From: Euglena gracilis
Taxonomy: Eukaryota
Direction: 5' to 3'
DNA: 54,583 bases
Assembly (NCBI GenBank): GCA_039621445.1
Contig: CP154954.1
Span: forward strand, 39,889,816-39,944,398
Below are positions 7,938 to 33,885 of the stretch, piece after piece. Positions within the stretch are counted from its first letter, which is position 1, and each line of letters starts with the position of its first letter. A program made the translations under genes and the position numbers. Below the pieces are notes generated by a model that worked only from the letters and a program-made list of their open reading frames with translations, was not told where the DNA came from and ran no database searches.

Positions 7938-7968
<31 letters not shown>

Positions 7969-10900
7969 CGGGGATTTTTGGGGGCCAGATTGCCTCAATG
8001 CCAGGAAATTCGGGGGTGCCAAAAAGTGCGACCAGCCCCCGGGACCAGGTCGGCTGGGTTCCCCGCCCCCAAAAACCCCACTGCCACCGGAACCACTGCT
8101 GGTAAAACACCCCGCAATAGCGAAATTTTGGCAATTTTTTCAGTACAATTCAGGGCGGCTGGTGGGGGTGGGGGGGGGGCGGGATTTTTTGGGCCAGATT
8201 GCCTCAATGCCAGGAAATTGGGGGGTGCCAAAAAGTGCGACCAGCCCCCGGAACCAGGTCGGCTGGGTTCCCCGCCCCCCAAAAACCCCACTGCCACCGG
8301 ATCCACTGCTGGTAAAACACCCCGCAATAGCGAAATTTTGGCAATTTTTTCAGTATTATTCGGGGCGGCTGGTGGGGGTGGGGGGGGCGGGATTTTTGGG
8401 GGCCAGATTGCCTCAATGCCAGGAAATTCGGGGGTGCCAAAAAGTGCGACCAGCCCCCGGGACCAGGTCGGCTGGGTTCCCCGCCCCCAAAAACCCCACT
8501 GCCACCGGAACCACTGCTGGTAAAACACCCCGCAATAGCGAAATTTGGGCAATTTTTTCAGTACAATTCGGGGCGGCTGGTGGGGGTGGGGTGGGGGGGG
8601 GGGCGGGATTTTTGGGGGCCAGATTGCCTCAATGCCAGGAAATTCGGGGGTGCCAAAAAGTGCGACCAGCCCCCGGGACCAGGTCAGTCGGCTGGGTTCC
8701 CCGCCCCCAAAAACCCTCTTGCCACCGGATCCACTGCTGGTAAAACACCCCGCAATAGCGAAATTTTGGCAATTTTTTCAGTATTATTCGGGGCGGCTGG
8801 TGGGGGTGGGGGGGGGCGGGATTTTTTGGGGCCAGATTGCCTCAATGCCAGGAAATTCGGGGGTGCCAAAAAGTGCGACCAGCCCCCGGGACCAGGTCGG
8901 CTGGGTTCCCCGCCCCCAAAAACCCCACTGCCACCGGAACCACTGCTGGTAAAACACCCCGCAATAGCGAAATTTTGGCAATTTTTTCAGTACAATTCGG
9001 GGCGGCTGGTGGGGGTGGGGGGGGGCGGGATTTTTTGGGGCCAGATTGCCTCAATGCCAGGAAATTCGGGGGTGCCAAAAAGTGCGACCAGCCCCCGGGA
9101 CCAGGTCGGCTGGGTTCCCCGCCCCCCAAAAACCCCACTGCCACCGGAACCACTGCTGGTAAAACACCCCGCAATAGCGAAATTTTGGCAATTTTTTCAG
9201 TACAATTCGGGGCGGCTGGTGGGGGTGGGGGGGGCGGGATTTTTTGGGGCCAGATTGCCTCAATGCCAGGAAATTGGGGGGTGCCAAAAAGTGCGACCAG
9301 CCCCCGGGACCAGGTCGGCTGGGTTCCCCGCCCCCAAAAACCCCACTGCCACCGGAACCACTGCTGGTAAAACACCCCGCAATAGCGAAATTTTGGCAAT
9401 TTTTTCAGTACAATTCAGGGCGGCTGGTGGGGGTGGGGGGGGGGATTTTTTGGGGCCAGATTGCCTCAATGCCAGGAAATTGGGGGGTGCCAAAAAGTGC
9501 GACCAGCCCCCGGGACCATGTCGGTCGGCTGGGTTCCCCGCCCCCCAAAAACCCCACTGCCACCGGATCCACTGCTGGTAAAACACCCCGCAATAGCGAA
9601 ATTTTGGCAATTTTTTCAGTATTATTCGGGGCGGCTGGTGGGGGTGGGGGGGGCGGGATTTTTGGGGGCCAGATTGCCTCAATGCCAGGAAATTCGGGGG
9701 TGCCAAAAAGTGCGACCAGCCCCCGGGACCAGGTCGGCTGGGTTCCCGCCCCCCAAAAACCCCACTGCCACCGGATCCACTGCTGGTAAAACACCCCGCA
9801 ATAGCGAAATTTTGGCAATTTTTTCAGTATTATTCGGGGCGGCTGGTGGGGGTGGGGGGGGCGGGATTTTTGGGGGCCAGATTGCCTCAATGCCAGGAAA
9901 TTGGGGGGTGCCAAAAAGTGCGACCAGCCCCCGGAACCAGGTCGGCTGGGTTCCCCGCCCCCCAAAAACCCCACTGCCACCGGATCCACTGCTGGTAAAA
10001 CACCCCGCAATAGCGAAATTTTGGCAATTTTTTCAGTATTATTCGGGGCGGCTGGTGGGGGTGGGGGGGGCGGGATTTTTGGGGGCCAGATTGCCTCAAT
10101 GCCAGGAAATTCGGGGGTGCCAAAAAGTGCGACCAGCCCCCGGGACCAGGTCGGCTGGGTTCCCCGCCCCCCAAAAACCCCACTGCCACCGGAACCACTG
10201 CTGGTAAAACACCCCGCAATAGCGAAATTTGGGCAATTTTTTCAGTACAATTCGGGGCGGCTGGTGGGGGTGGGGTGGGGGGGGGCGGGATTTTTGGGGG
10301 CCAGATTGCCTCAATGCCAGGAAATTCGGGGGTGCCAAAAAGTGCGACCAGCCCCCGGGACCAGGTCAGTCGGCTGGGTTCCCCGCCCCCAAAAACCCCA
10401 CTGCCACCGGATCCACTGCTGGTAAAACACCCCGCAATAGCGAAATTTCGGCAATTTTTTCAGTATATTTCGGGGCGGCTGGTGGGGGGGGGGGGGGCGG
10501 GATTTTTGGGGGCCAGATTGCCTCAATGCCAGGAAATGGGTGCCAAAAAGTGCGACCAGCCCCCGGGACCAGGTCGGCTGGGTTCCCCGCCCCCTAAAAG
10601 CCTCTTGCCACCGGAACCACTGCTGGTGAAACACCCCGCAATAGCGAAATTTTGGCAATTTTTTTAGTATTATTCGGGGCGGCTCATGGGGGAGGGGGGG
10701 GGGCGGGATTTTGGGGGCCAGATTGCCTCAATGCCAGGAAATTCGGGGGTGCCAAAAAGTGCGACCAGCCCCCGGGACCAGGTCGGCTGGGTTCCCCGCC
10801 CCCACAAACCCCACGCCAAGGAACCACGATGGTCGTAAAACACCCCGCAATAGCGAAATTTCGGCAATTTTTTCAGTACAATTCGGGGCGGCTGGTGGGG

Positions 10901-13900
10901 GTGGGGGGGGGGGCGGGATTTTTGGGGGCCAGATTGCCTCAATGCCAGGAAATTGGGGGGTGCCAAAAAGTGCGACCAGCCCCCGGGACCAGGTCGGCTG
11001 GGTTCCCCGCCCCCAAAAACCCTCTTGCCACCGGATCCACTGCTGGTAAAACACCCCGCAATAGCGAAATTTTGGCAATTTTTTCAGTATAATATATAAT
11101 TCGGGGCGGCTGGTGGGGGGGGGGCGGGATTTTTTGGGGCCAGATTGCCTCAATGCCAGGAAATTGGGGGGTGCCAAAAAGTGCGACCAGCCCCCGGGAC
11201 CAGGTCGGCTGGGTTCCCCGCCCCCAAAAACCCCACTGCCACCGGAACCACTGCTGGTAAAACACCCCGCAATAGCGAAATTGGGGCAATTTTTTAAGTA
11301 CAATTAGGGGAGGCTGGTGGTGGGGGTGGGGCGGGGGGGGGAGGAATTTTGAGGGCCAGATTGCCTCAATGCCAGGAAATTCGGGGGTGCCAAAAAGTGC
11401 GACCAGCCCCCGGGACCAGGTCGGCTGGGTTCCCCGCCCCCAAAAACCCCACTGCCACCGGATCCACTGCTGGTAAAACACCCCGCAATAGCGAAATTTT
11501 GGCAATTTTTTCAGTATAATTCGGGGCGGCTGGTGGGGGTGGGGGGGGGGGCGGGATTTTTGGGGTCCAGATTGCCTCACTGCCAGGAAATTTGGGGGTG
11601 CCAAAAAGTGCGACCAGCCCCCGGGACCAGGTCGGCTGGGTTCCCCCCCCCCCAAAAACCCCACTGCCACCGGAACCACTGCTGGTAAAACACCCCGCAA
11701 TAGCGAAATTTTGGCAATTTTTTCAGTACAATTCGGGGCGGCTGGTGGGGGTGGGGGGGGGGGCGGGATTTTTGGGGGCCAGATTGCCTCAATGCCAGGA
11801 AATTCGGGGGTGCCAAAAAGTGCGACCAGCCCCCGGGACCAGGTCGGCTGGGTTCCCCGCCCCCAAAAACCCCACTGCCACCGGAACCACTGCTGGTAAA
11901 ACACCCCGCAATAGCGAAATTTTGGCAATTTTTTCAGTATAATTCGGGGCGGCTGGTGGGGGTGGGGGGGGGACGGGATTTTTGGGGTCCAGATTGCCTC
12001 AATGCCAGGAAATTCGGGGGTGCCAAAAAGTGCGACCAGCCCCCGGGACCAGGTCGGCTGGGTTCCCCGCCCCCCAAAAACCCCACTGCCACCGGAACCA
12101 CTGCTGGTAAAACACCCCGCAATAGCGAAATTTTGGCAATTTTTTCAGTATAATTCGGGGCGGCTGGTGGGGGTGGGGTGGGGGGGGGGCGGGATTTTTG
12201 GGGGCCAGATTGCCTCAATGCCAGGAAATTCGGGGGTGCCAAAAAGTGCGACCAGCCCCCGGGACCAGGTCGGCTGGGTTCCCCGCCCCCAAAAACCCTC
12301 TTGCCACCGGATCCACTGCTGGTAAAACACCCCGCAATAGCGAAATTTTGGCAATTTTTTCAGTATAATTCGGGGCGGCTGGTGGGGGTGGGGGGGGGGG
12401 GGGGGGGGATTTTTGGGGGCCAGATTGCCTCAATGCCAGGAAATTGGGGGGTGCCAAAAAGTGCGACCAGCCCCCGGGACCAGGTCGGCTGGGTTCCCCG
12501 CCCCCAAAAACCCTCTTGCCACCGGATCCACTGCTGGTAAAACACCCCGCAATAGCGAAATTTTGGCAATTTTTTCAGTATAATTCGGGGCGGCTGGTGG
12601 GGGTGGGGGGGGGGGGCGGGATTTTTTGGGGCCAGATTGCCTCAATGCCAGGAAATTGGGGGGTGCCAAAAAGTGCGACCAGCCCCCGGGACCAGGTCGG
12701 CTGGGTTCCCCGCCCCCCAAAAACCCCACTGCCACCGGAACCACTGCTGGTAAAACACCCCGCAATAGCGAAATTTTGGCAATTTTTTCAGTATTATTCG
12801 GGGCGGCTGGTGGGGGTGGGGGGGGGGCGGGATTTTTGGGGGCCAGATTGCCTCAATGCCAGGAAATTCGGGGGTGCCAAAAAGTGCGACCAGCCCCCGG
12901 GACCAGGTCGGCTGGGTTCCCCGCCCCCCAAAAACCCTCTTGCCACCGGATCCACTGCTGGTAAAACACCCCGCAATAGCGAAATTTCGGCAATTTTTTC
13001 AGTACAATTCGGGGCGGCTGGTGGGGGTGGGGGGGGGCGGGATTTTTTGGGGCCAGATTGCCTCAATGCCAGGAAATTGGGGGGTGCCAAAAAGTGCGAC
13101 CAGCCCCCGGGACCAGGTCGGCTGGGTTCCCCGCCCCCAAAAACCCCACTGCCACCGGAACCACTGCTGGTAAAACACCCCGCAATAGCGAAATTTCGGC
13201 AATTTTTTCAGTACGGGGCGGCTCGTGGGGGAGGGGGGGGGGCGGGATTTTGGGGGCCAGATTGCCTCAATGCCAGGAAATTGGGGGGTGCCAAAAAGTG
13301 CGACCAGCCCCCGGACCAGGTCGGCTGGGTTCCCCGCCCCCAAAAACCCCACTGCCACCGGAACCACTGCTGGTAAAACACCCCGCAACAGCGAAATTTC
13401 GGCAATTTTTTCAGTACGGGGCGGCTCATGGGGGTGGGGGGGGGGGGCGGGATTTTTGGGGGCCAGATTGCCTCAATGCCAGGAAATTCGGGGGTGCCAA
13501 AAAGTGCGACCAGCCCCCGGGACCAGGTCGGCTGGGTTCCCCGCCCCCAAAAACCCCACTGCCACCGGATCCACTGCTGGTAAAACACCCCGCAATAGCG
13601 AAATTTCGGCAATTTTTTCAGTATAATTCGGGGCGGCTGGTGGGGGTGGGGGGGGGCGGGATTTTGGGGGGCCAGATTGCCTCAATGCCAGGAAATTCGG
13701 GGGTGCCAAAAAGTGCGACCAGCCCCCGGGACCAGGTCGGCTGGGTTCCCCGCCCCCCAAAAACCCCACTGCCACCGGAACCACTGCTGGTAAAACACCC
13801 CGCAATAGCGAAATTTCGGCAATTTTTTCAGTATAATTCGGGGCGGCTGGTGGGGGTGGGGGGGGCGGGATTTTTTGGGGCCAGATTGCCTCAATGCCAG

Positions 13901-16900
13901 GAAATGGGTGCCAAAAAGTGCGGCCAGCCCCCGGGACCAGGTCGGCTGGGTTCCCCGCCCCCTAAAACCCTCTTGCCACCGGAACCACTGCTGGTGAAAC
14001 ACCCCGCAATAGCGAAATTTTGGCAATTTTTTTAGTATTATTCGGGGCGGCTCATGGGGGTGGGGGGGGGCGGGATTTTTTGTGGCCAGATGATTGCCTC
14101 AATGCCAGGAAATTCGGGGGTGCCAAAAAAGTGTGACCAGCCCCCGGGACCAGGTCGGAAAAAGTGCGACCAGCCCCCGGGACCAGGTCGGCTGGGTTCC
14201 CCGCCCCCCAAAAACCCCACTGCCACCGGATCCACTGCTGGTAAAACACCCCGCAATAGCGAAATTTCGGCAATTTTTTTCAGTACAATTCGGGGCGGCT
14301 GGTGGGGGTGGGGGGGGGCGGGATTTTTTGGTGCCAGATTGCCTCAATGCCAGGAAATTCGGGGGTGCCAAAAAGTGCGACCAGCCCCCGGGACCAGGTC
14401 GGCTGGGTTCCCCGCCCCCCAAAAACCCCACTGCCACCGGAACCACTGCTGGTAAAACACCCCGCAATAGCGAAATTTTGGCAATTTTTTCAGTATAATT
14501 CGGGGCGGCTGGTGGGGGTGGGGGGGGGCGGGATTTTTGGGGGCCAGATTGCCTCAATGCCAGGAAATTGGGGGGTGCCAAAAAGTGCGACCAGCCCCCG
14601 GGACCAGGTCGGCTGGGTTCCCCGCCCCCAAAAACCCTCTTGCCACCGGATCCACTGCTGGTAAAACACCCCGCAATAGCGAAATTTTGGCAATTTTTTC
14701 AGTATAATTCGGGGCGGCTGGTGGGGGTGGGGGGGGGGGGCGGGAATTTTGGGGGCCAGATTGCCTCAATGCCAGGAAATTCGGGGGTGCCAAAAAGTGC
14801 GACCAGCCCCCGGGACCAGGTCGGCTGGGTTCCCCGCCCCCCAAAAACCCCACTGCCACCGGAACCACTGCTGGTAAAACACCCCGCAATAGCGAAATTT
14901 TGGCAATTTTTTCAGTACAATTCGGGGCGGCTGGTGGGGGTGGGGGGGGGGGCGGGATTTTTTGGGGCCAGATTGCCTCAATGCCAGGAAATTCGGGGGT
15001 GCCAAAAAGTGCGACCAGCCCCCGGGACCAGGTCGGCTGGGTTCCCCGCCCCCAAAAACCCTCTTGCCACCGGATCCACTGCTGGTAAAACACCCCGCAA
15101 TAGCGAAATTTCGGCAATTTTTTCAGTATAATTCGGGGCGGCTGGAAGGGGAGAGCAGGGGAAAAGGCGGGATTTTTTGGGGGCTCAGATTGCCTCATGC
15201 CAGGAATTCGGGTTCCACAAAGTGCCAAAGTGCGGGGGCGTGAGCCCGCCCCCGGTGCACCATCGGGGGTCGTCTGTGGTCCCCGCCCCCTCCCCGGGGG
15301 GAGGGTTTCTATTTTTTGTGTAAAGGGTTTCTTTATTTTTTTTCCCGTCCATTTTGCCCCGCGTAATCCACTCTGCTGAAACCCCCGCAATAAGGCGAAA
15401 TTTCGGGCAATTTTTTCAGTATTATTCGGGGCGGCTGGGGGGGGTGGGGGGGGGAGGGGGCGGGGATTTTTTGGGGCCCAGATGCCTGCCTCAATGCCAG
15501 GAAATTGGGGGGTGCCAAAAAGTGCGACCAGCCCCCGGGACCAGGTCGGCTGGGTTCCCCGCCCCCCAAAAACCCCACTGCCACCGGAACCACTGCTGGT
15601 AAAACACCCCGCAACAGCGATATTTCGGCAATTTTTTCAGTACGGGGCGGCTCATGGGGGTGGGGTGGGGGGGGGGGCGGGATTTTTGGGGGCTAGATTG
15701 CCTCAATGCCAGGAAATTGGGGGGTGCCAAAAAGTGCGACCAGCCCCCGGGACCAGGTCGGCTGGGTTCCCCGCCCCCAAAAACCCTCTTGCCACCGGAT
15801 CCACTGCTGGTAAAACACCCCGCAATAGCGAAATTTTGGCAATTTTTTCAGTACAATTCGGGGCGGCTGGTGGGGGTGGGGTGGGGGGGGGGCGGGATTT
15901 TTGGGGGCCAGATTGCCTCAATGCCAGGAAATTCGGGGGTGCCAAAAAGTGCGACCAGCCCCCGGGACCAGGTCGGCTGGGTTCCCCGCCCCCAAAAACC
16001 CTCTTGCCACCGGATCCACTGCTGGTAAAACACCCCGCAATAGCGAAATTTCGGCAATTTTTTCAGTATAATTCGGGGCGGCTGGTGGGGGTGGGGGGGG
16101 GCGGGATTTTTTGGCCAGATTGCCTCAATGCCAGGAAATTGGGGGGTGCCAAAAAGTGCGACCAGCCCCCGGGACCAGGTCGGCTGGGTTCCCCGCCCCC
16201 AAAAACCCTCCACCCACCGAACCACTGCTGGTAAAACACCCCGCAATAGCGATATTTCGGCAATTTTTTCAGTACAATTCGGGGCGGCTGGTGGGGGTGG
16301 GGGGGCGGGATTTTTTGGTGCCAGATTGCCTCAATGCCAGGAAATTCGGGGGTGCCAAAAAGTGCGACCAGCCCCCGGGACCAGGTCGGCTGGGTTCCCC
16401 GCCCCCCAAAAACCCCACTGCCACCGGAACCACTGCTGGTAAAACACCCCGCAACAGCGAAATTTCGGCAATTTTTTCAGTATAATTCGGGGCGGCTCGT
16501 GGGGGTGGGGTGGGGGGGGGCGGGATTTTTGGGGGCCAGATTGCCTCAATGCCAGGAAATTCGGGGGTGCCAAAAAGTGCGACCAGCCCCCGGGACCAGG
16601 TCGGCTGGGTTCCCCGCCCCCAAGAACCCTCTTGCCACCGGATCCACTGCTGGTAAAACACCCCGCAATAGCGAAATTTTGGCAATTTTTTCAGTATAAT
16701 TTGGGGCGGCTCGTGGGGGTGGGGTGGGGGGGGGCGGGATTTTGGGGCCAGATTGCCTCAATGCCAGGAAATTGGAGGGTGCCAAAAAGTGCGACCAGCC
16801 CCCGGGACCAGGTCGGCTGGGTTCCCCGCCCCCAAAAACCCCACTGCCACCGGATCCACTGCTGGTAAAACACCCCGCAATAGCGAAATTTCGGCAATTT

Positions 16901-17075
16901 TTTCAGTATAATTCGGGGCGGCTCGTGGGGGTGGGGGCGTGGTTTTTTGGGCCAGATTGCCTCAATGCCAGGAAATTGGGGGGTGCCAAAAAGTGCGACC
17001 AGCCCCCGGGACCAGGTCGGCTGGGTTCCCCGCCCCCAAAAACCCCATTGGCACCGGAACGACTGCTGGTTAAAC
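1..17075. repeat. ~211-bp tandem satellite array, ~81 units, extends beyond left edge of window
   Basis: Unit gggccagattgcctcaatgccaggaaatt(c/g)gggggtgccaaaaagtgcgaccagcccccgggaccaggtcggctgggttccccgcccccaaaaaccccactgccaccggaaccactgctggtaaaacaccccgcaatagcgaaattttggcaattttttcagta...G-tract...gcgggatttttt repeated head to tail; variation is mostly homopolymer length plus a few diagnostic substitutions. Confidence 0.99.
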
Positions 17076-17168
17076 ACCAGCAGTGGTTCAAGGGTCAGCT
17101 ATGTCTTCTCAGTGTACGTGTGGGTATGTCTTGGGCTTTTCCACTATCTCAATTCATTTTCTCGACAG

Positions 17169-20100: not shown

Positions 20101-23100
20101 GAGTGGTGCATTGTTTGACTGATTTTTCAAAAAAAAACATGTGCGAAAACTCAATTTTTGGGGTTTTTTTGACCACTCATTTAGTACCCTGCCCGAGGGA
20201 TGGGGGTCCGGAGACCCCTGGGCTGTGTTTCAGATTTACACCCTCGAATGCCCCCTGCCCCTCACAGTTCGAGAGCGCGCTGCAGGCGCGCGAGGCTGCG
20301 GCGGGACGACCACCCCGCGCACCGCGAACGGTGTGCTTACAATTTTCTCCAGAATGAATCAAAAACTGATAATATTCAAAAGAAGACAAATTTGGTGCCG
20401 TGCAGCTTTCTAAAGGCAATGACGATGGTGAGGGATGCGCATGGGTTTCTGTCTAATCCCCGCAATGCGCCAAATATAGGGCATTTTCGACCCCTCTGGG
20501 GGGGGGGTCGGGTTTTGGGACCCCCCCAGGCTGTATTTTAGTCGGGTGTCGACCCCACCCCGGGGGGGGGGGGTGCCTGCCCAGGCAGGCACCCCAAAGC
20601 ACTCCAAATCCCCCCGGGGGGGGGGTAGGGCACATGGCCAAAAGTGCCCTAGCACAACCCCGGCGCCAAAGGCGCCGGGGAGCCAAAAATGGCCTATTTT
20701 CAAAGGAATGTGCCCGGGCACAGGCCGAAATCCGACCCCCCCCGGGGGGGGGGGTAGTGCCTGCCTGGGCAGGCACTCACAGGCACTCCGGACCCCCCCC
20801 TCCCCCCCCCGGGGTTGGTAAAAAACAGCCTGCCCCCCCCCCGGCGCCGAATGGATTGGCCTCCGAAAATTGGCCTGGCCGGCAGGCTCCGAGAGGCACA
20901 AAGCACAGGGCCCCCCCAGGTTGGTGAAAAGAAGCCTGATCTTCTGACGTCACTCCCCCAAATGTTTTGCATTTTGTGGGTTGACTCGCAGAAAAGCACA
21001 CATTTTGTTTGCACTGCATTATTTTTGGTTGCCATTTTCCTAGGCGGCGAGGGGGAATTCATCATCTCATATCGTTTTCCCTCTCACAGGTCCGCGGCTG
21101 GTGGCTGGTGCCCCTGCTGCTCGCCCCGATCGTTGCTGCGGGCTGGACACACAGAGCCCATTGGCGTTGGCATTTGGGGTCAGAGAAAAGGAAAGTTGGA
21201 ATTTGGGAGCACAACCCGGATGATTGGGTTTGAGTCACTGCCAGCGTTGCGTTTCACTCAAAGGAATTTGACAAAACGTTGGAAGTCTGGGTTTTTTTTG
21301 TTGGGGCAGGGTTTGATATAAGGAGGGCGTACATGGTTTAGGTGGGGGGGGTGTCCCCCCCCACCCCCCCCCCCTCCTGGCCCGCAGGGGGGGTCCGGAC
21401 CACCCCCCCCCCACCTGCAAGGGGGGTCCGGACCGACCCTGGGGGGCAAAAATTGACCCCCCCAAAAAGGGTCAATTTTTTCCTCCGGCGCTTCGCGCCG
21501 AAAATTTTTTGCATTTTTGGCACATTTTTGCCCAAAAAGTGCCCAAAATGGCACTTTTGGTCGTTTTGGGGGGTCAAAAATTTTCGGCCCAGCGCTTCGC
21601 GCCGGGCCGAAAATTCGGCCACCCTGACCGCGCACCTGTTTAGGTGGGGGGGGGTATCCCCCCCCCCCCCCCCCCCCCCCTGGCCCGCAGGGGGGGGGTC
21701 CGGCCCACCCCCCCCCACCTGTCCTTATATCGAACCCTGACTGGGGGTTAGATTGGTGCTGTTAACCCCCGGCAAATCGAGTCAACATGTTTTGTTGAGA
21801 TGTGAATAATTTCTTTTTTTTAATCATCATCATCATCATTGTCATTGTTGTTGTTGTTGTTGTTGTTGTTCGTTGTTGTTGTTGTTGTTGTTGTTGTTGC
21901 TATTGCTATCATCATCATCATCATCATGAGGTGCATTGACCTACCAACGGGCCCTGCTGTTGATCCTGCCGACCACCGACAGCCGCCTGGCCAACACGCT
22001 GGCGTGGCTGGCCAGGGTTGTATGGGAACTCCACAGCCACAGGCGTGAGACAGGTGGTAGGGGTCCCCCCCCCTGGGGGAGTGAGGTGGCAGGGGGGTCC
22101 CCCCCCCCCCCCCCCCCCGGTTTCAGAAGGGGTCCCCCACCCCCTCCCCCTCCTCTGCAGGGGCAAATAAAAATCTTCCGGCGCTTCGCGTTGGGTGTGC
22201 ATTTTTGGACCCTCTTGAAGCTCAATATGAAACTTTGGCAAAATGGGCAAGATTGGTCGAAAAATGGCTGTAATTTGGGTCAGGTGGGGAGTTGAGAGGA
22301 AATCAAATTGGCATTTCAAGGGCTTCAATTAAGGCATCTGACACCTCTTTATTCCCCATCTTTTATTCCCCACCACTGCACCATTTCAGAGAAATTTCAA
22401 GAAAAAATCAATTTTTTGATCCAAACAGGGCCAAAAATTTTCGGTGACCGAACACTGGAGGTAGGGGGGGATCCCCCTCACCCCCCAGTCCCCTCCTCCT
22501 CCGAGATTCCCATACAAGCCTGCGGCTGGCGGTGGTCACCACGTACAGCTGGCTGTACGTGGACTGCCTGCGGCCGCGGCTGCGGTGGGTCGCCGCCCTG
22601 TACCCCTGCACCGCAATCGGGGTGCCCTTTGCGGTTGGTTCGTTTCGAGGGGGGGGGAGGGTTACCTTCAAGTTCATTCGCAATCCCCCAACGGGTTCGG
22701 TGGATCAACTGCCATTTGTCTCTCATCCAAATTCAACTTCCCCTCCCCTCCCCCCCTCCCGGGCAGAGGGCCCTCCGCCGCCAGCCGTCGCCGCCATCGT
22801 CCACGCCATCGACCGCCGCCTGCGTGAACAAGTCGAGGGCAACGGCTACGGCGGGCCACACCCTGTCTCATCCCTCCCTCTTGTGACCGGTTGGCTTGGC
22901 TTGGCGTCTCCCTGGTCCCTCCCCAGGGATGGATTGGAAGCATTTTGGTTTGAAGGTGAGGGGAGGCCCCTTCCTGGAGGTTGGGGGGGTCAGGACCCCC
23001 CTTTCTTTATGGCAAAAATATATCTTTTGGCGCGCCGAAAAATGAACAAACATGCCCCTTTTCCTCACTTTTGAGCACATTGCCCATTTTTTTTTGATGG

Positions 23101-26100
23101 TTTGGTGCTTTCCGCAGCTAAAGTGTTCACATTTTTTGAGGAATTCATTTTCAAAGAAAAATCAAGGGCTTTTCAACAATTTTGGTCTGGCCCCCAAGGC
23201 ACTCCGGACCCCCCCCCAGGTTGGTAAAAAACAGGCTGGTCCCCTCTCTCCCCCTGTCCCTTTTGAGCCGGGGCGTGGCGGCACAACGCCGCCTACGCCG
23301 CCCTCCGCGTGGCCCACACGTGGGCCATCGTGGTGGGCGCCGTGGGCGACCTCGCCGTCCACGCCCTGCTGCTGGGGCCAGGCCCGTCCCCCCCTTTTTT
23401 TTCGGCCCCTCCCGGTTGGCGACTTGGCCACATTCCTGGAAGAGCCTGGAAATCCGGATAGATGCGTTTAAAGCCCTCATCATTGAAGGACAAAAGTGCT
23501 GGACTTGGCAATTGGGGTCAGGAGTGTGAAATGCAGGTAAACGGAATTTGCAGGCATCACATGTTTTTTTGAATCGCTTTGTTGCACTCCGCCTGTTTCC
23601 CGATTGGGTTTCTTTCAGGTCCAATGGGTGCCTTTCGGCTCACAATTTGAAGGCGATCCAAAGTTCTCCAAACCTCGCGGGCCGTTTGTTTCCCACCCCC
23701 ACCCCAAGCGGGTTCCCGGGGGGGCCGGCCTGCGGCCAAGTGCCCGCCCCCTTCATCAACCCCACCACGCCCCTCCAGCGGTGGAGGGACGCGCAGCCGC
23801 CGCCGCCGCCCGGGCCCGTGGCGAAGGCGAAGGCGGTGGTGCGGGAGATCCGGCGCCGGCTGTGGCCTGCCGGGCAGGCCCTTCCTGAAGGGCACCCGCC
23901 CCTCCCCCTGCCTTTCTGCATTGCAAGTCCCACGCAGACAATCACTCACTGATCAGTGGGGTATCCCATCCCGACCAGGTTTTTTTTAGCTTTGGACCTC
24001 CTGGGGGGTGGGGGGGGGCAGGGTGGGTGGGTCCAGCCAAGCCCCCCATGGGGGGGGTCCCCCCAGGGGGAGTGGGATGCCCTTTTCGGCGCTGAAGGTG
24101 CCGAAATTTTTTGAAAAAGGTGCTTTTTTTTAGCATTTTTCGCGATTTTTCGGCCATTTTCGGTGGGTCCCCTGGGACCCCCCTGGGGTGGGTGGGTGGA
24201 TTGATTGGTTTTTTGGGTGGACGTGACCCCTGGGATCAGTGTAAAGAAGTTTGTGCAGTCCCCCCTCCACACGGTCTCTTTGAAGAAGCGACAGGGTGCC
24301 AAGCCCCCCTCTTCTGGTGCAAATCCCAGGCACCCCTCCCCCGCCATCTTTGGCAACGGCCTGTCGCTGCCCGGCGTGCGGAACCGCCTGCGCCGCCGGC
24401 CGCGCCGGCTGTCGCGCCAGCTGCGCCGCCGGCCGAGCTGCCGGCCGCGCCGGCCGCTGAAGCAGCAGCGGTGGCGCAACCCCAGCCAGGGCACATAAAA
24501 CATGGCACACGAAGCGCACAACAAAATACAATTTCTATCTTCTGTCCTCCTTTCCAGGGGTTTTTTTCATCGTGGACTCCGGGGGGTGGGTGGGTGGGTG
24601 GGTGGGGCCCCGGGACCCGGGGGGGGGGGTCCCCCTGGAGGGGGCTGGGATGTGCTTTTCAGCGCTTTTTTGAAAAGGTGCTATTTGTTGCACGTTTCGC
24701 GATTTTCGGCCATTTTTTTTTGTGGGTCCCCCGACCCCCCCCCCCCAGGGAGGCCGGTTGGTGGGCGGGGGACCTCCCCCCGGTCTTAAGAAAAACCCCT
24801 GCTCCTTTCTAAATGAATGGGGAACAGGGAATTTCTTAAGGGCCCCCCCCGGGGGGGTCCAGCCTCCGGCTGGCAAAAAAGGCTGCTGGCTGGATTTGAG
24901 CTGCTGGCTGGACCCCCCCGGCGGGGGGGGGGGGGGTGGGGGGTCCGGGACTGGAGGGGACTGGGCTGGGCTGGGTCGAGGAAAAACAAAAATTTTTGAC
25001 ACATTTTTGTCACTTTAGACATTTTGATGGGTGGAGCTAGATCAAGGCTGGGGGGCTGTGCCAGGCTGTATTTTAGTCGGGTGCCGACCCCACCCCGGGG
25101 GGGGGGTGCCTGCCTGGGCAGGCACCCCAAGGCACTCCAAATCCGACCCCCCCCCGGGGGGGGGGGAGGGCACACGGCCAAAAGTGCCCTAGCACAACCC
25201 CGGCGCCAAAGGCGCCGGGGAGCCAAAAATGGCCTTTTTTCAAAGGAATGTGCCCGGGCACAGGCCGAAATCCGACCCCCCCCTGGGGGGGTAGTGCCTG
25301 CCTGGGCAGGCACTCACAGGCACTCCGGACCCCCCCCCCGGGGTTGGTAAAAAACAGCCTGGGCTGTGCTGGAGGGGCTGTGATGAGGAGAAAAAAAGCA
25401 AGGATAAGTGACTGGTGGGACCCAGGCCCAGCCTGAGTCCCAGGCTGGACCTGGGCCTCAGGTCCAGCCCGGAGGCCGGGCTGGACCCAGTTTTATTTTA
25501 CTCGACCCCCAGGAGGGGGGCTCCCAGCCCGAATTTGGACTGCTGGCTGGATTTGAGCTGCTGGCTGGCTGGATTCCCCCGGGGGGGGGGTAGGGTACCC
25601 TCCGGCTTACCCCCCCCTCCCCTAGTCGTACGACCACCCCTCATTTACGACCACCCCCCGGTCACAGGTTGCAGGTCATGGGGGTGTTATGACCACCCCC
25701 CCCGGTCACAGGTTGCAGGTTGCGAAAAATTTGGCACCACCTTACCTACAACCGCCGCCTCGTTTATGACCACCCCCCGGTCACAGGTTGCAGGTTATGG
25801 GGGTGTTACGACCACCCCCCCCGGTCACAGGTTGCAGGAACCCGGTCGTACGACTAGGGGAGGGGGGGGTACGAAATTCCCTGATGGGGAAGGAGCAAAA
25901 AAAAAGACATTCAATGCATAACACAGCCCATCTGGGGCTGGGGTTGAATATCCATTTTTTTCACTGAGGGCTTTCCAAAAGAGTTGCCAGAGCCCCCTGC
26001 TTCCCTGTCCAGGAAATTTCTTCCCGTGAGTGATGAAGAATACTCGAAAACCAATAAAATTTTTACACGCAAAGTGAAAATTCAGCTCAAAAAACAGGAG

Positions 26101-26879
26101 AATGTTTTTTTTTTGGAGATAATTAAGCATGGGGGGTGTCTCTTTGGCTCGGGGCGGCTCACGGTTTTGATTTTTTCCCTCCTCGCCAGTGAACGTTTTT
26201 TGAGCCCGCCCAGCTTTGGCTTTGGTGGGGGATTGGCAATTTTCAGGTTGGGGCGCAGCTTAAGAAAATTTGATCCCATGGGGGGTTCCAGCCCAGGGTT
26301 CGATATAAGGAGGGCGCCCAGGGTTCAGGTGTGGTCTGGACCCCCCCCCCCACCCCCCTCCTGGACCACCCTGCCAAGGGGGTCCGGACCAACCCTGGGG
26401 GGTTCCGGGACCCCCCACCCCCACCTGCCTTGAGATCGAACCCGGCTCCAGCCAGCCAGCAGCCTTTTTTCCAGCATGGGACCCCCTCCCGCCCTCAACG
26501 AGTTTTATTTATTTCCAGCCTCCCTTTGGGGGGGGGGCAAAAAAATGGGCCAAAAATGGACAAAAATGGCGAAATTGGAAAAGGGCTGGTCAGGGCAAAT
26601 TTGGGCCCTTTTCTTTGCATGATTGGCAGTTGTTTTGGATTTTTTTTTGCCATTTCGATTTTTTTTTTGGTGCCTGCTTCGACAGGACCGGGAGGGGGCA
26701 GGGGTCAGCCAGCAGCCTTATTCCAGCCAAGCCAATTTTCCAGCTTCTGAGCTGGACCTCCATCCTTAAGCTACGCCCTGGCCCAGGGAACTGCAACGGC
26801 GCATGGCGCTGTGCCCTGCGCACGGCCCAATGCCCTGAAGAGGGCGTGGCGGAAGCTGAAGCGCAAGCTGCACCGGTGA
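17169..26879 (+). CDS. Multi-exon gene (5'-partial) for an uncharacterised multi-pass membrane protein with a CxxC-x19-CxxC motif and a Pro/Ala-rich then basic C-terminus, ~383 aa
   Basis: Exons 17169-17259 (or 17265), 17380-17406, 17560-17576, 18319-18420, 18495-18532, 18819-18877, 19117-19196, 20268-20330, 21090-21148, 21962-22009, 22528-22614, 22783-22850, 23268-23375, 23738-23871, 24369-24483 and 26824-26879 join in phase to 1152 nt, mostly GC3-rich, ending TGA. Translation includes LLEYWWLLETPAERTAKEIQVRHAVADPGLCARCHHRRLGMVQAEVAGRSVPLCPACRFATFESAL, GWWLVPLLLAPIVAAGWTILP, LAWLAVVTTYSWLYVDCL and RPNALKRAWRKLKRKLHR*. The first four exons are less certain. Confidence 0.8.
18421..18494 (+). 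other. Nonconventional (euglenid-type) intron, 74 nt
   Basis: c|gag CAGGCTG...CAGCCTG acgcc|g; whole intron folds as a hairpin; joins ...QLL|EYWW in frame. Confidence 0.75.
18533..18818 (+). other. Nonconventional intron with perfect 14-bp TIR
   Basis: c|aac CAGGGCAGAACGGG ... CCCGTTCTGCCCTG ggggc|g; joins ERT|AKEIQ in frame. Confidence 0.85.
18878..19116 (+). other. Nonconventional intron, CAC...GTG variant
   Basis: c|gcc CACGCCCTTCCTTA ... TAACGAAGGGCGTG ggacc|a (13/14 paired); joins CARC|HHRRLG in frame. Confidence 0.85.
19350..19504. mobile_element. MITE family E, short copy, TA TSD (Tc1/mariner-like)
   Basis: ta|cccgcccc..ttgtcgtacg ... cgtacaacaa..ggggcggg|ta; internal acgaccacccc..ggtcacag repeats shared with 25610-25869. 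Confidence 0.75.
20527..20832 (+). mobile_element. MITE family A (hAT-like)
   Basis: TIR caggctgtatttt / aaaaaacagcctg; near-identical to 25062-25361 and, inverted, to 34343-34637. Confidence 0.9.
21307..21739 (+). mobile_element. MITE family B (hAT-like)
   Basis: TIR cagggtttgatataagga / tccttatatcgaaccctg; near-identical copy at 32091-32494. Confidence 0.9.
21823..21927. repeat. Compound (ATC)n-(GTT)n-(ATC)n microsatellite
   Basis: Trinucleotide runs read directly. Confidence 0.9.
22010..22527 (+). other. Nonconventional intron that is a recognisable MITE with near-intact 8-bp TSD
   Basis: TIR CAGGGTTGTATGGGAA / TTCCCATACAAGCCTG (15/16); flanks tggctggc / cggctggc (7/8); joins LAWL|AVVTT; related element at 33116-33885. 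Confidence 0.9.
22615..22782 (+). other. Nonconventional intron, CGG...CCG variant
   Basis: c|aat CGGGGTGCCCTTTGC ... GCAGAGGGCCCTCCG ccgcc|a (12/15); joins CTA|AVAAIV, whereas the nearby GT-AG pair would shift the frame. Confidence 0.75.
23376..23737 (+). other. Probable nonconventional intron
   Basis: CAGGCCCGTCCCCC / GGGGGGCCGGCCTG (12/14); joins LLL|EVPAPF in frame; 5' junction is g|g rather than Y|R, so the exact boundary is uncertain. Confidence 0.6.
23872..24368 (+). other. Nonconventional intron (an in-frame GC-AG alternative 23878-24329 also exists)
   Basis: c|ggg CAGGCCCTTCCTGAAG ... CTTTGGCAACGGCCTG tcgct|g; joins LWPA|ARRAEP. Confidence 0.65.
24555..24801 (+). mobile_element. 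MITE family C, diverged copy
   Basis: caggggttttttt ... aaaaacccctg; perfect 8-bp TSD ctcctttc. Confidence 0.9.
25062..25361 (+). mobile_element. MITE family A
   Basis: TIR as above; perfect 8-bp TSD ggctgtgc. Confidence 0.93.
25610..25869. mobile_element. MITE family E, TA TSD
   Basis: ~25-bp TIR cccc..tcccctagtcgtacgacc / ggtcgtacgactaggggagggg; TA on both sides; 4 internal ccggtcacaggttgcagg repeats. Confidence 0.88.
26294..26445 (+). mobile_element. Short family B-like MITE nested in an older element (~26249-26780)
   Basis: cagggttcgatataagg ... ccttgagatcgaacccgg; TSD ttccagcc/ctccagcc. Confidence 0.75.
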
Positions 26880-26884: not shown

Positions 26885-26959
<75 letters not shown>

Positions 26960-26987
26960 GGGGGGGGGGGGGGGGGGGGGGGGGGGT

Positions 26988-27021
<34 letters not shown>

Positions 27022-27119
27022 GTTGGGGGGGGGGGGGGGGGGGGGGGTTGTTTTTGGGGGTGGGTGGGGGGGGGGGGGGGGGAGGGGGGGGGGGGGGGGG
27101 GGGGGGGGGGTGTTGGGGG
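26885..27119 (+). repeat. ~235-nt near-pure poly-G tract immediately after the stop codon
   Basis: Read directly; exact length probably unreliable. Confidence 0.9.
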
Positions 27120-27458: not shown

Positions 27459-27744
27459 CAGGGATTTTTTTAAGTTTGGACCCCCGGGGGGGGGGAGGGG
27501 GGGGGTAGGGTGGGTGGGTCCGCCGGACCCCCTCCCCCCGGGGGGGGTCCCCCCAGAGGGGGGTGGGATATACTTTTCGGCGCCGCAGGCGCCGAAAAAA
27601 TTCTATTTTTAGCACTTTTCGCGATTTTTCGGCCATTTTTTGTGGGTCCCCCGGGACCCCCTCCCCCCCCAGGGGGGGCCCCCCAAGGGGGTGGGTGGGT
27701 GGGGGGGGACCCCCCCTCCCCCCCCGGTCTTAAAAAAACCCCTG
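27459..27744 (+). mobile_element. MITE family C
   Basis: TIR cagggatttttttaag / cttaaaaaaacccctg; perfect TSD tcaggagc. Confidence 0.93.
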
Positions 27745-29230: not shown

Positions 29231-30727
29231 CGGTAGACTGGGGGGGGGGTAGTGGGTAGTCGGCCGACTAGTCGGCCGACTACCCAATTGGTCCACCGAC
29301 TAGTCCTAGTCGGTAGCTAGTCGGCGAGACAGGGGGGGGGGGGTAGTGGGTAGTCGGCCAACTAGTCGGCCGACTACCCACTCTAATGTACTAACGGGTC
29401 AAAACCGCCGACTTTTAAGCCCCCCCCCATGAACAAAATCCAATGCAAACTAGTCGGTGGCTAGTCGGCGGTCATAAAAATGGTCTGTGGCGGGCCCAAA
29501 TCACCCGGAAATGGTCCGGATGGGTCCAAATAAGTGTCTTACGCCTAAATAAACACCCCCAGATGGAAATCTTTGGTCAGTGGGGGGTCGGTGGGCCCTT
29601 GATGGGGGTCCGGAGGGGTAAAAAACCAATGATGAAACAGGGATTACATTAAAATCCTTTAGAAATGCAATCTGCAATCTGCGTTTTGCATCACGAGAGG
29701 CAGAAAACTCCCCCCTCCACCCCAATCCGAGACTCAAATAACAAAATCCCTTCTGTGTTGGCAACGTACTCGGGGGCTAAGTCGTTTTTGTGGCTCACTT
29801 TGGCATAGGCGGGGGGGGCTCCGCCCCCCCCCGCACCTGCCCCCTCAAATAACAAAATCCCTTCTGTGTTGGCAACATACTCGGGGGCTAAGTCGTTTTT
29901 GTGGCTCACTTTGGCATAGGCGGGGGGGTGGCTCCGCCCCCGCCGCACCCCGCCCTCAAATACCAAAATCCCTTCTGTGTTGGCAACATACTCGGGGGCT
30001 AAGTCGTTTTTGTGGCTCACTTTGGCATAGGCGGGGGGGGCTCCGCCCCCCCCGCACCCCCCCCTCAAATAACAAAATCCCTTCTCTGTTGGCAACATAT
30101 TCGGGGGCTAAGTCGTTTTTGTGGCTCACTTTGGCATAGGCGGGGGGGCTCCGCCCCCCCCCCCGCAGCTCCACCCTCAAATAACAAAATCCCTTCTGTG
30201 TTGGCAACATACTCGGGGGCTAAGTCGTTTTTGTTGCTTACTTTGGCATAGGCGGGGGGGGCTCCGCCCCCCCCCGCACCCCCCCCCTCAAATAACAAAA
30301 TCCCTTCTATGTTGGCTATAGACTTGGGGGATAAGACCCTTTTTTTGTGCAAATTTTGACTTATATTGAAAATTCAATGGGGAGAGGTGTACTTTTGTCA
30401 AAAGTGGCCCAAAATGGACATTTTCCCCCAATTTTTTTGCATATTCACCCCCGATTGGGGGGTTCTGGAGCCATTTGGGTCGGTTTTGACCGGCGTTGAG
30501 GTGATTTAGACATTTTTTTTTACCAGGGGGGGGGCTTAAAAGTCGGCGGTTTTGACCCGTTAGTACATTAGAGTGGGTAGTCGGCCGACTAGTCGGCCGA
30601 CTACCCACTACCCCCCCGCCGACTAGCCACCGACCAATTAGTCGGCCGACTAGTCGGTGGACCAATTGGGTAGTCGGCCGACTAGTCGGCCGACTACCCA
30701 CTCCCCCCCCCCCCCCCCAGTCTACCG
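29231..30727. mobile_element. Foldback-like element with ~200-bp TIRs built from TAGTCGGCCGAC palindromic units and an internal tandem array
   Basis: 29231-29428 is the reverse complement of ~30527-30727; TSD ambiguous (possibly TA within cggTAccg). Confidence 0.85.
29733..30318. repeat. ~111-bp tandem repeat, 5 full units plus a partial
   Basis: ctcaaataacaaaatcccttctgtgttggcaacatactcgggggctaagtcgtttttgtggctcactttggcataggcggggggg repeated. Confidence 0.95.
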
Positions 30728-30891: not shown

Positions 30892-31188
30892 CAGGCTTAT
30901 GCTCAGTCGGGTGCCTACCCCACGGGGGGGGGGGGGGCTGCTGGGGGGCAGGCACCCTATATCACCCGATCCGACCCCCCCCCCCCGGGGGAGGTGAGGT
31001 TTTTGGGGGGGCACCTGACCATAGCAGGCATTCCCCTCCGACCCTGGCGCCGAAGGCGCCGGGACCTGGAAGAGGCTAATTTTCAACGAAAATTTTCTGG
31101 GTCCCCCCGGACCCCCCCCCCTCCTGGGGTGTGCCGGTGTGCCTGCTGGGGCAGGCACCTTCTAGCACCCACCGTGAGCACAAGCCAC
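30892..31188 (+). mobile_element. MITE family D
   Basis: caggcttatgctca ... tgagcacaagcc; homologous to ~33560-33820 and, inverted, to 46915-47209. Confidence 0.75.
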
Positions 31189-32090: not shown

Positions 32091-32494
32091 CAGGGTTTGA
32101 TATAAGGAGGGCGTACATGGTTTAGGTGGGGGGTGTCCCCCCCCCTCCTGGCCCGCAGGGGGGGTCCGGACCCCCCACCTGCCAGGGGGGTCCGGACCGA
32201 CCCTGGGGGGCAAAAATTGACCCCCCCCAGAAAGGGTCAATTTTTTCCTCCGGCGCTTCGCGCCGAAAATTTTTTGCATTTTTGGCACATTTTTGCCCAA
32301 AAAGTGCCCAAAATGGCACTTTTGGTCGTTTTGGGGGGTCAAAAATTTTCGGCCCGGCGCTTCGCGCGGGGCCGAAATTCGGCCACCCTGACCGCGCACC
32401 TGTTTAGGAGGGGGGGGTCCCCCCACCCCCCCCCCCCCCGGCCCCCAGGGGGGGTCCGGACCACCCCCCCCACCTGTCTTTATATTGAACCCTG
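32091..32494 (+). mobile_element. MITE family B
   Basis: TIR cagggtttgatataa / ttatattgaaccctg; TSD ggcacccc/ggcacttc. Confidence 0.9.
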
Positions 32495-32780: not shown

Positions 32781-33042
32781 CAGGGGTTTTTTTCAGTCGG
32801 GGCCCCCCGGGGGGGGGGGGGCAGGGTGGGTGGGTCCGGCCGAGCCCCCCCGGGGGGGTCCCCCCGGAGGGGGGTGGGATATACTTTTCTGCGCCACAGG
32901 CACGAAAAAAATTCTATTTTTAGCACTTTTCGCGATTTTTCGGCCACTTTTTTGTGGGTCCCCCGGGACCCCCCGGGGGGGCCCCCCAGGGGGTGGGTGG
33001 GTGGGGGGACCCCCCTCCCCCCCGGTCTTAAAAAAACCCCTG
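32781..33042 (+). mobile_element. MITE family C
   Basis: caggggttttttt ... aaaaaaacccctg; perfect TSD ctccgatt. Confidence 0.92.
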
Positions 33043-33115: not shown

Positions 33116-33885
33116 CAGGGTTGTATGGGAAGCTCCGCAGACATGAGGTAAACCCTCCCCCGAAATAATCCCCCCTCCAAATAATACCCCCCCCCCAAAC
33201 AATACCCCCTCCAAATTATACCCCCCCCCCCCCAAACAATACCCCCCTCCCCCTGGGGTTCGACTTCGGCCACCAAATTAATACCCCCCCCCCCAAATCT
33301 CGGGCCGACGACCCGGATTTTGACTGAAAATTTGGGTAAAAATCACATTCTCTGACAACAAATTACGAAAAAAATTGATTTTTTTACTGAATCACTGGCC
33401 TCCAAAAATGCTAAATTTTATGAGAAAGGACAAAAACGACCCCAAAGGGGGTTTTGGTGCTATTTTGGGTCTTACGGGACTTCGAAAAATTCCGAAAAAA
33501 TAATTTTTTGACCGAAGAAACGGCCGAAATTTGCAGCGACCGAAAACTGGAGGTAGGAGGAGGGTTGTGTTTAGTCGGGTGCCTACCCATGGGGGGGGGC
33601 TGCTGGGGGCAGGCACCCTCTGGCACCCGATCCGACCCCCCCCCCCCGGGAGGTGGGGTTTTTGGGGGGTGTCCCCCTCCGACCCTGGTGCCGAAGGCCC
33701 GGAAGAGGCCATTTTCAATGAAAATTTTCTGGGTCCCCCCGACCCCCCGGGGGGGGGGGGACACAGAAGCCAGACAAGAAGCCTTAGGTGCGGGGGGCAG
33801 GCACCCTATAAGCACAAGTGCTCCCCCCACCCCCCCAGTTTTGGAAGGGGGTCCCCCCCCCCTCGGAGATTCCCATACAAGCCCG
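33116..33885 (+). mobile_element. MITE sharing TIRs with intron 22010-22527, with a nested family D copy
   Basis: cagggttgtatgggaa ... gagattcccatacaagcccg; internal ccccaaataatacccc-type repeats at 33160-33300. Confidence 0.8.

Follow-up and report, generated by a model that had tools for sequence, protein, structure and literature searches.

Can one transposon family supply both an intron that leaves a coding frame intact and an ordinary insertion in non-coding DNA? This question is raised by a 54.6-kb stretch of the Euglena gracilis genome (54,583 nt; the whole stretch is referred to below as the window), in which an initial annotation placed a frame-restoring intron at positions 22010-22527 and a free insertion with the same TIRs at 33116-33885. 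The locus fits an older, still unproven idea, that of a transposon origin of nonconventional introns. In the excerpts of the euglenid literature considered here, a MITE origin of these introns was proposed in 2014, their origin is still called unclear in a 2025 paper, and the transposon origin stands as a hypothesis ("origins remain unclear") for which no family is named.

Two elements of one family

Element 1 (22013-22522, plus strand) is a non-coding, MITE-like element of 510 bp (GC content 0.54) with the termini CAGGG...CCTG. The arms of its TIR (22013-22028 and 22507-22522) are 16 nt long and complementary at 15 of 16 positions (94%), and the element is bordered by two copies of a TSD, TGGCTGGC (22005-22012) and CGGCTGGC (22523-22530), which agree in 7 of 8 positions; both values are those given in the initial annotation. 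Element 2 (33116-33885, plus strand) is a 770-bp sister copy with the termini CAG...CCG and uninformative flanks (GACCCCCC/CCCCCCCC). As had been claimed, it carries the same TIRs: its left end (33116-33131) is the exact 16-mer of element 1, the inverted copy at 33870-33885 contains two mismatches, and the arms reach 20 nt at 90% identity. With up to three mismatches allowed, this 16-mer occurs 10 times in the window (mean 1.10, largest 5, in 100 shuffles); four of the occurrences are the four termini of elements 1 and 2, and the remainder are solo and weak. The match at 22924 (three mismatches) was rejected as an element end, as it lies inside a probable exon (exon e, see below) and has no in-frame partner.

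The similarity of the two elements is not confined to their ends. Comparison by blastn revealed three blocks, all colinear: positions 1-27 of element 1 with 1-28 of element 2 (89%), 377-456 with 369-445, and 476-508 with 736-768 (91%). The second of these, an internal block common to both elements (22389-22468 and 33484-33560, plus strand; 79% over 81 nt, E 1e-12), contradicts the possibility, considered in the initial annotation, that only chance termini are shared. The same ends together with the colinear internal block therefore place elements 1 and 2 in a single, real MITE-like transposon family, which has two copies in the window. An additional segment of element 2, missing from element 1 (approximately 33561-33850, plus strand), consists largely of another repeat family: positions 446-556 of the element match 30893-31010 (85%, E 3e-26) and also 47098-47208. 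The longest ATG-ORFs encode 63 aa (element 1) and 106 aa (element 2).

The DNA around element 2 is without coding signal, and it is in this sense that its description as a free insertion holds, although a gene that escaped notice may contain the element in its UTR or in one of its introns. A scan of metagenomes with a TIR-based pattern returned four loci (GC content 0.46-0.55), all judged to be chance matches lacking the right TIR or other similarity.

A wider class with 8-bp duplications

We surveyed positions 17000-54583 for CAG..C[TC]G pairs with a TIR of at least 12/14. Among the 23 pairs obtained, the 8-bp register yielded six perfect duplications and one with a single mismatch, while registers 2-7 and 9-12 yielded 0-2 perfect duplications; in 200 block shuffles the mean was 2.6 pairs, and 0.005 with a TSD of at least 7/8. 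Both elements fall into a wider class in the window, with CAGG...CCTG ends and exactly 8-bp duplications, which is hAT/Ds-like. Pairs with "CTA" and "GGC" ends and apparent 8-bp duplications were discarded as artefacts of a large palindrome at 29240-30715. The six elements with perfect TSDs lie in non-coding DNA, where GC1/2/3 of the flanks is flat.

The general terminus motif of hAT elements is (C/T)A(A/G)NG (YARNG), and the CAGGG terminus found here agrees with an end of this type. The elements share with non-autonomous hAT elements (maize Ds and Ds-like) the 8-bp TSD, the CAGGG start of the TIR and short, non-coding, heterogeneous interiors that carry nested insertions. For Ac/Ds, an excerpt of PMC3260210 gives the TIR as (C/T)AGGGATGAAA and the TSD as 8 bp; past CAGGG, the TIR described here bears no relation to that of Ac, and the interiors of the elements are rich in G/C homopolymers.

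The probable host gene

Element 1 lies within a series of segments of coding character on the plus strand. Upstream of it, a nonconventional-type intron (21149-21961; ACA-CAG...CCTG-CTGTT, then G; termini 11/14 complementary), which contains a nested copy of an abundant MITE (21307-21739), defines the inferred 5' border of probable exon c (21962-22009; GC1/2/3 of 21942-22009, 0.61/0.48/0.95). The predicted nonconventional intron that includes element 1 (22010-22527) is followed by probable exon d (22528-22637; 0.65/0.56/0.92), a conventional GT..AG intron of 129 nt (22638-22766), which is in frame and ends with a C-rich tract and CAG, a pattern reported for E. gracilis, and probable exon e (22767-22955). 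Further downstream are a second conventional intron, GTGAGG..TTTTGAG (22956-23267; 312 nt, in frame), probable exon f (23268-23375; GC3 1.0), another nonconventional-type intron (23376-23737; GGC-CAGG...CCTG-CGGCC, then A; TIR 13/16, TSD gone) and the probable last exon g (23738-23952), which terminates in a stop codon. All five modelled exons are open (GC3 0.68-1.0), and the joined model c-g (690 nt; GC1/2/3 0.72/0.56/0.84) is open up to the final stop. A gene on the minus strand was rejected, since the GTGAGG...C-rich-tract-AG signals and the order GC3>GC1>GC2 fit the plus strand only.

No homologous protein was found with 22523-22861 as query (675 candidates, none at E<=0.01), nor by HMMER with 22529-22954 against 1.84 billion representatives; none of the eight exon peptides matched a Pfam family, and the whole window gave no match in Rfam. 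The coding status is therefore argued from composition and open frames. The insertion of element 1 within coding sequence, as originally proposed, is supported by the strong coding periodicity of both its flanks (GC3 0.95 and 0.92).

The two further nonconventional-type introns of this gene have the same architecture as 22010-22527, with CAG at +4, CTG at -8, terminal pairing of 11/14 and 12/14, and the frame preserved; their duplications have decayed. For 21149-21961 this is the sole code-compatible in-frame option, next to two weak GT/GC..AG options, and for 23376-23737 eight GT/GC..AG alternatives are likewise in frame. In the whole window, only 92 of 20460 CAG..CTG pairs (0.45%) reach a pairing of 11/14. 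Judged by its intron architecture, the gene belongs to a euglenid-type genome, most likely that of a Euglena. The earlier remark that the TIRs and TSDs of the other introns are more decayed is accurate for these two (termini 11/14 in 21149-21961, TIR 13/16 in 23376-23737, and no TSD in either). That 22010-22527 is the youngest-looking intron is correct among the three TIR-bearing introns of the gene (TSD 7/8 versus none), but the six non-coding elements with 8/8 TSDs look younger.

Fit of the predicted intron to the nonconventional splice code

The code of nonconventional introns, set by knock-ins in E. gracilis, is 5'-N3CDG-/-CH'GN5-6 followed by a purine, R (PMC12501133, in excerpt), and the introns of this species carry CCAGG at +3..+7 and CCTG at -9..-6 (PMC11170887, in excerpt). 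The sequence 22010-22527, N3(GGC)-CAG...CTG-N5(CGGCT), starts with GGCCAGG and ends with CCTGCGGCT, and its coordinates match both the code and the E. gracilis consensus exactly: CAG at +4..+6 pairs with CTG at -8..-6, the spacers are 3 and 5 nt long, and the exon that follows opens with G (22528), a purine as the code requires. The borders are GG...CT, and GT..AG occurs at none of the eight slid positions across the duplication. As the two spacers add up to the 8-bp duplication, a cut at 22010-22527 would restore the codons that existed before insertion. The fit is partly automatic: N3/N5 will be matched by every hAT-like element that ends in CAG/CTG and has made an 8-bp duplication. The purine is the only independent part of the fit, which on its own therefore does not tell the host organism.

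The open frames upstream (from 21930) and downstream (from 22448) can be joined only by an intron whose length is 2 mod 3, with which the 518 nt of 22010-22527 agree. The frame-restoring character claimed for this intron is thus present, together with the match to the code, but it is not unique: 37 options are in frame and free of stops (26 GT/GC..AG pairs and 11 of the nonconventional code), and among the 11 code-compatible options 22010-22527 has the best terminal pairing (13/14). The termini of element 1 are paired in both the MFE and the centroid fold, the z score of the whole fold being just -2.23. With these features, 22010-22527 is a probable nonconventional intron, which may be spliced at these borders.

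Nonconventional introns reportedly end up, after excision, as circular RNAs with full-length ends. RNA reads covering the locus were sparse. In run X21, of which approximately 5 in 100 reads were used, the depth was 0/0 in the bin containing exon d and did not exceed 1.1 in those of the remaining exons; repeats dominate the 765 joints, and none of the 15 listed lies at element 1. Reads of runs X1 and X2 cover unique intronic sequence and resemble DNA or pre-mRNA. One contig of 149 nt from X1 fits from position 22490 onward only, with 45 letters unplaced.

Proposed explanation

The structure of the elements and their family relationship, the 8-bp rule, flanks with coding periodicity and borders that agree with the published code are observed, and could be explained as follows: (i) element 1, a non-autonomous hAT/Ds-like DNA transposon (CAGGG ends, 8-bp TSD), would have landed in a coding exon, (ii) folding of the pre-mRNA by its TIR would bring the two junctions together, (iii) nonconventional (non-GT-AG) splicing would cut 3 nt ahead of the terminal CAG and 5 nt past the terminal CTG, and (iv) the element and one copy of the duplication (22010-22527) would be excised, restoring the codons ..LAWL/AVVTT... 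Element 2, with its nested repeat and the CAG...CCG mismatch, which violates the nonconventional splice code, would be a sister copy in non-coding DNA, so that members of one family would act as an intron in one place and as an ordinary insertion in another. We regard this account, in which splicing and its site are deduced from sequence features, as evenly balanced between right and wrong.

More tentatively, and with some inclination to doubt, we suggest that euglenid nonconventional introns as a class may be hAT-type MITEs, the 3/5-nt code mirroring hAT insertion (CAG termini plus an 8-bp duplication). Since nonconventional splicing would erase such insertions exactly, a class of still-mobile elements could spread into exons. 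The idea can be taken a bolder step further, in that the excision machinery may recognise transposon ends through descent from, or co-evolution with, the transposition machinery. The locus offers a useful test case, with a concrete family and a concrete rule; if confirmed, it would turn the hypothesis into a mechanism of intron gain and hint at where the excision enzyme may be sought.

Alternative explanations

The alternative that survives best, although we consider it unlikely, is that the ordinary spliceosome removes element 1 in the manner of introners, using GT/GC..AG sites in or beside the element and leaving or changing a few codons. Both elements have a GT at +33 (GTGAGA in element 1, GTAAAC in element 2) and a C-rich tract with GAG at -18, equally distant from the respective ends, and a spliceosomal intron within the element is therefore possible. 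The candidates are GT22045 (GTGAGA) or GT22054 (CAG/GTGGTA) with AG22505, which is preceded by a C-rich tract of the E. gracilis type, and GT22004 with AG22518. The gene has two other conventional introns, and this is the mode described for Micromonas introners in an excerpt of PMC11282704. However, the codons that preceded the insertion are recovered with none of the 26 GT/GC..AG pairs, no use would be made of the 15/16 TIR at fixed +4/-8, which is the strongest feature of the structure, and none of the candidate sites fully matches GTGTG, the reported 5' consensus of E. gracilis. In euglenids, conventional introns are reportedly removed first and nonconventional ones later (same source, in excerpt), so the two kinds of splicing could also act in turn.

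Quite improbable, in our view, is an unspliced insertion, by which element 1 would disrupt the gene, leaving either a pseudogene or a single broken allele; that the frame is restored would then be trivial, since taking out any transposon with one TSD restores the frame by construction. Read-through into element 1 meets a stop at 22293-22295 (ORF 21930-22295), the sparse reads of X21 provide no RNA support for splicing, and constraint on the gene lacks backing from homologues. On the other hand, the differences in the TSD (1 of 8) and TIR (1 of 16) indicate some age, yet the five exons have stayed open with GC3 of 0.68-1.0, and element 1 has all the cis features examined that are needed by a splicing system known to remove introns introduced by knock-in as well as synthetic ones.

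That the flanks are non-coding, so that element 1 would be a MITE outside any gene and the "exons" accidents of composition, would agree with the failure of both protein searches and of Pfam and with the repeats that make up most of the window, but is very unlikely given three separate segments (c, d and f) with GC3 of 0.95, 0.92 and 1.0 and GC2 near 0.5 (0.48-0.56), same-strand introns (GTGAGG and C-rich tract plus AG) that join the segments in frame, the terminal stop, and the flat GC1/2/3 around the six other perfect-TSD elements.

Relationship to known introns

The predicted nonconventional intron resembles those of euglenids (Milanowski et al. 2014, 2016; Gao et al. 2024; Nomura et al. 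2025) in several respects: its frame-restoring borders lack GT-AG, CAG and CTG occupy +4..+6 and -8..-6 within CCAGG/CCTG as in E. gracilis, the inverted-repeat ends pair, the next exon starts with a purine, and direct repeats at the junctions make the intron "slidable". The 8-nt repeat is also shared with a recently gained nonconventional intron in gapC of an E. agilis strain, for which 8-nt direct repeats are given in an excerpt of PMC4770533. In contrast to the published euglenid introns, the present one belongs to an identifiable repeat family, another copy of which lies in DNA without coding signal, and to a class whose duplications measure exactly 8 bp. Our search of the main texts of openly accessible papers returned no intron placed in a transposon family of which further copies lie outside genes, and no statement equating the 3+5-nt spacers with a hAT-type 8-bp TSD; the word "duplication" is absent from PMC12501133, and "hAT" from PMC11282704.

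Two groups of introns outside the euglenids, both described in excerpts of PMC11282704, are comparable. The introners of Micromonas, Aureococcus and dinoflagellates are likewise DNA transposons with TIRs and TSDs that create introns in exons; unlike the intron predicted here, for which precise removal offers GT..AG at no slid position, they are spliceosomal, with one splice site in the element and one in the TSD (3 nt in Micromonas). The MITE-derived introns of Amoebophrya and Fritillaria borealis share TIRs, TSDs and non-canonical borders with the predicted intron, whereas their end motifs are different (not CAG/CTG at +4/-8) and the TSD in Amoebophrya is 3-5 nt long.

Two copies of one element family

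The element that splits the probable + strand gene (element 1, 22013-22522) is 510 bp long, with a GC content of 0.54 and a longest ATG-ORF of 63 aa. Its borders read TGGCTGGC / CAGGGTTGTATGGGAA ... TTCCCATACAAGCCTG / CGGCTGGC. As claimed in the initial annotation, the TIRs (22013-22028 and 22507-22522, located with a repeat finder) are 16 nt long and 94% complementary, and the flanking octamers are 7/8 identical. The same TIRs had been assigned to a second copy, element 2 (33116-33885, + strand), and this proved correct: the 16-mer of element 1 occurs exactly at 33116 and, inverted and with two mismatches, at 33870-33885, the arms of element 2 reaching 20 nt at 90%. When up to 3 mismatches were allowed, the window contained 10 occurrences of this sequence, against 1.10 expected (100 shuffles, largest 5); six of the 10 matches are not ends of either element and are solo and weak.

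A mere chance terminal match between the elements was not borne out, since blastn revealed three blocks, all colinear (element 1 positions 1-27 with element 2 positions 1-28, 89%; 377-456 with 369-445, 79% over 81 nt, E 1e-12; 476-508 with 736-768, 91%). The two elements therefore form one family, and element 1 is almost certainly a hAT-like MITE belonging to it. The greater length of element 2 is mainly caused by an extra segment (approx. 33561-33850) similar to another repeat of the window (30893-31010, 85%, E 3e-26; also 47098-47208). Its right end reads CCG, not CTG, and its flanks (GACCCCCC / CCCCCCCC) are too simple for judging a duplication.

CAG-ended elements with 8-bp duplications

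Region 17000-54583 was scanned for CAG...C(T/C)G pairs, 80-1600 nt apart and with terminal complementarity of at least 12/14, after removal of arms in which a single base exceeded 60%. Among the 23 pairs obtained, six showed a perfect duplication in the 8-bp register and seven, these six included, were within one mismatch (the seventh being element 1, 7/8). Registers 2-7 and 9-12 of the same pairs gave 0-2 perfect cases, so that the 8-bp register stands alone; 200 block shuffles yielded a mean of 2.6 pairs, and 0.005 pairs with a TSD of at least 7/8. CTA- and GGC-ended pairs with seeming duplications were rejected as artefacts of the palindrome at 29240-30715.

The elements with perfect 8/8 TSDs (24555-24801, 24825-25883, 25062-25361 nested inside the latter, 27459-27744, 32781-33042 and 48081-48380) are MITE-like, end in CAGG...CCTG, have no coding signal around them and look younger than element 1. 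GC1/2/3 was flat in every junction-spanning frame around these six and element 2; most members of the class in this window are thus in non-coding DNA, and one is in a probable exon. Ac/Ds elements are described, in the available text of PMC3260210, as having the TIR (C/T)AGGGATGAAA and an 8-bp TSD. Since CAGGG ends and an 8-bp duplication, the hallmarks of Ac/Ds, are common to both, the class was filed as putatively hAT-like.

Another family, whose ends read CAGGGTTTGATATAAGG..., begins with the same 7 bases as element 1 (21307-21739, 32091-32494 and approx. 26295-26440, the last flanked, by eye, by TTCCAGCC/CTCCAGCC). It is probably very abundant, since contigs of a DNA run gathered far more heavily in the bin containing 21351-21677 than in any other.

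Coding status of the flanking sequences

A word-indexed protein search with 22523-22861 found no homologue at E ≤ 0.01 among 675 candidates, HMMER with 22529-22954 against all 1.84 billion representatives gave no match, and the 8 of 8 peptides searched hit no Pfam family; the coding case therefore rests on composition and signals. GC3 on the + strand is 0.95 at 21942-22009, 0.92 at 22528-22637 (the probable exon following element 1) and 1.0 at 23268-23375, with GC2 of 0.48-0.56. Joined with 22767-22955 and 23738-23952, these segments give a 690-nt frame, open up to the terminal stop, with GC1/2/3 of 0.72/0.56/0.84. Two ordinary + strand introns were recognized: 22638-22766, whose 3' end is a C-rich tract plus CAG, as described for conventional introns of E. 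gracilis, and 22956-23267 (GTGAGG...TTTTGAG).

Fit to the nonconventional splice code

When element 1 is cut out exactly with one duplication (22010-22527), no GT..AG occurs at any slid position. This stretch starts with GGCCAGG and ends with CCTGCGGCT, followed by G, and thereby shares with euglenid nonconventional introns both the lack of GT..AG and the CAG/CTG code. It has all features listed in the available text of two E. gracilis studies: the knock-in-derived signature 5'-N3CDG-/-CH'GN5-6, followed by R, with a donor spacer of strictly 3 nt and an acceptor spacer of 5 (to 6) nt (Nomura et al. 2025; PMC12501133), and CCAGG at +3..+7 with CCTG at -9..-6 (Gao et al. 2024; PMC11170887). The ends are paired in both MFE and centroid folds, and their 13/14 pairing is the best of 11 code-compatible in-frame options (runner-up 22031-22533, 12/14).

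Two other nonconventional-type introns of this gene (+ strand), 23376-23737 (GGC-CAGG...CCTG-CGGCC, then A; pairing 12/14) and 21149-21961 (CAG...CCTG-CTGTT, then G; pairing 11/14), retain no duplication, in agreement with the earlier description of the remaining introns as more decayed. The second is the sole code-type in-frame option there, besides two weak GT/GC..AG options. Of all 20460 CAG..CTG pairs counted over the window, only 92 attain 11/14, the real elements included.

Excision would require one cut 3 nt upstream of CAG and another 5 nt downstream of CTG. For a target x1..x8 this would leave x1-x5 plus x6-x8, the original sequence, because the 3+5 spacers equal the 8-bp duplication. 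We infer this equality to be the core of the mechanism; it agrees with a recently gained intron bordered by 8-nt direct repeats in one E. agilis strain, which its authors ascribed to break repair (available text of PMC4770533). By the same reckoning, the code is bound to be matched by every element that has CAG ends and an 8-bp TSD, and the fit is therefore no independent sign that the host can splice element 1. Independent hints at a euglenid host come from the two decayed introns of like design, from the C-rich tract plus CAG of intron 22638-22766 and from the large, repeat-rich genome. The chances that element 1 is cut out as a nonconventional intron at 22010-22527 appear evenly balanced.

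Possible removal through internal conventional sites

The most serious rival is possible removal via conventional splice sites inside element 1. Counted from the left end, both elements carry a GT at a distance of exactly 33 nt (22045, GTGAGA; 33148, GTAAAC), and in both a C-rich tract plus GAG ends 18 nt from the right end (22505; 33868); by this route the mRNA would retain 57 nt, or 19 codons. Across element 1, 26 GT/GC..AG pairs are in frame and stop-free, as are the 11 code-type pairs, so that frame restoration alone is weak evidence. The internal sites may form a twintron-like arrangement. In Euglena, conventional introns are removed first and nonconventional ones later (available text of the review PMC11282704), and hence these routes may be compatible.

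In an RNA run (approx. 5 in 100 read) depth was 0/0 in the bin of exon 22528-22637 and did not exceed 1.1 in any other exon bin. Read mapping was dominated by repeats, and none of the 15 joints listed, of 765, fell at element 1; two runs guessed as RNA had reads over unique intronic sequence. One 149-nt contig of run X1 matches the window from no earlier than 22490 (22490-22593), its preceding 45 letters being unplaced; the match begins right after a C-rich tract plus CAG whose last base is 22488. A difference between strains, a branch at a repeat or splicing to 22489 could account for this.

The initial observation, one family with a copy whose removal would restore a reading frame and another copy outside apparent coding sequence, was confirmed, and its interpretation as a MITE-intron link partly supported: the shared family, the probable exon and the code fit speak for it, whereas frame restoration is not unique. 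A MITE origin of nonconventional introns was proposed in 2014 (PMC3935182) and repeated in a 2024 review mentioning TSD-like repeats (PMC11282704), and the origin was still termed unresolved in 2025 (PMC12501133), as far as the available texts go. Within the available text of the literature searched, we found no nonconventional intron placed in a family that also has copies outside genes, and no link to hAT or an 8-bp duplication rule; data on sliding distances or families in supplementary files may bear on both points. The stretch 22010-22527 would represent a new case of an already hypothesised MITE-derived intron, its value being a concrete, testable link.

Repeats of the window

With a GC content of 0.51-0.64 per 2 kb, the window is GC-rich; it consists mostly of repeats, among them many short inverted-repeat elements and minisatellites. 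A 212-bp satellite forms a tandem array of approx. 17 kb (1-17078); translations of 46400-50400 resemble it and weaker relatives occur there, which suggests dispersed degenerate copies. A 226-nt G run (26885-27110, 92% matches) could be genuine or an assembly/sequencing artefact. The large inverted repeat at 29240-30715 (arms up to 105 nt, 94%) is made of GTAGTCGGCCGACTAG palindromes, and between its arms a 111-bp unit is repeated 5.4 times in tandem (29733-30335). A 442-bp unit is repeated 4.1 times at 36014-37821 (95% identity), and a minisatellite at 43494-45076 (29-bp unit, 55 copies) has several frames open on both strands. An interstitial (AGGGTT)n tract, a telomere-like repeat of the TTAGGG type (47968-48076), immediately precedes the perfect-TSD element at 48081.
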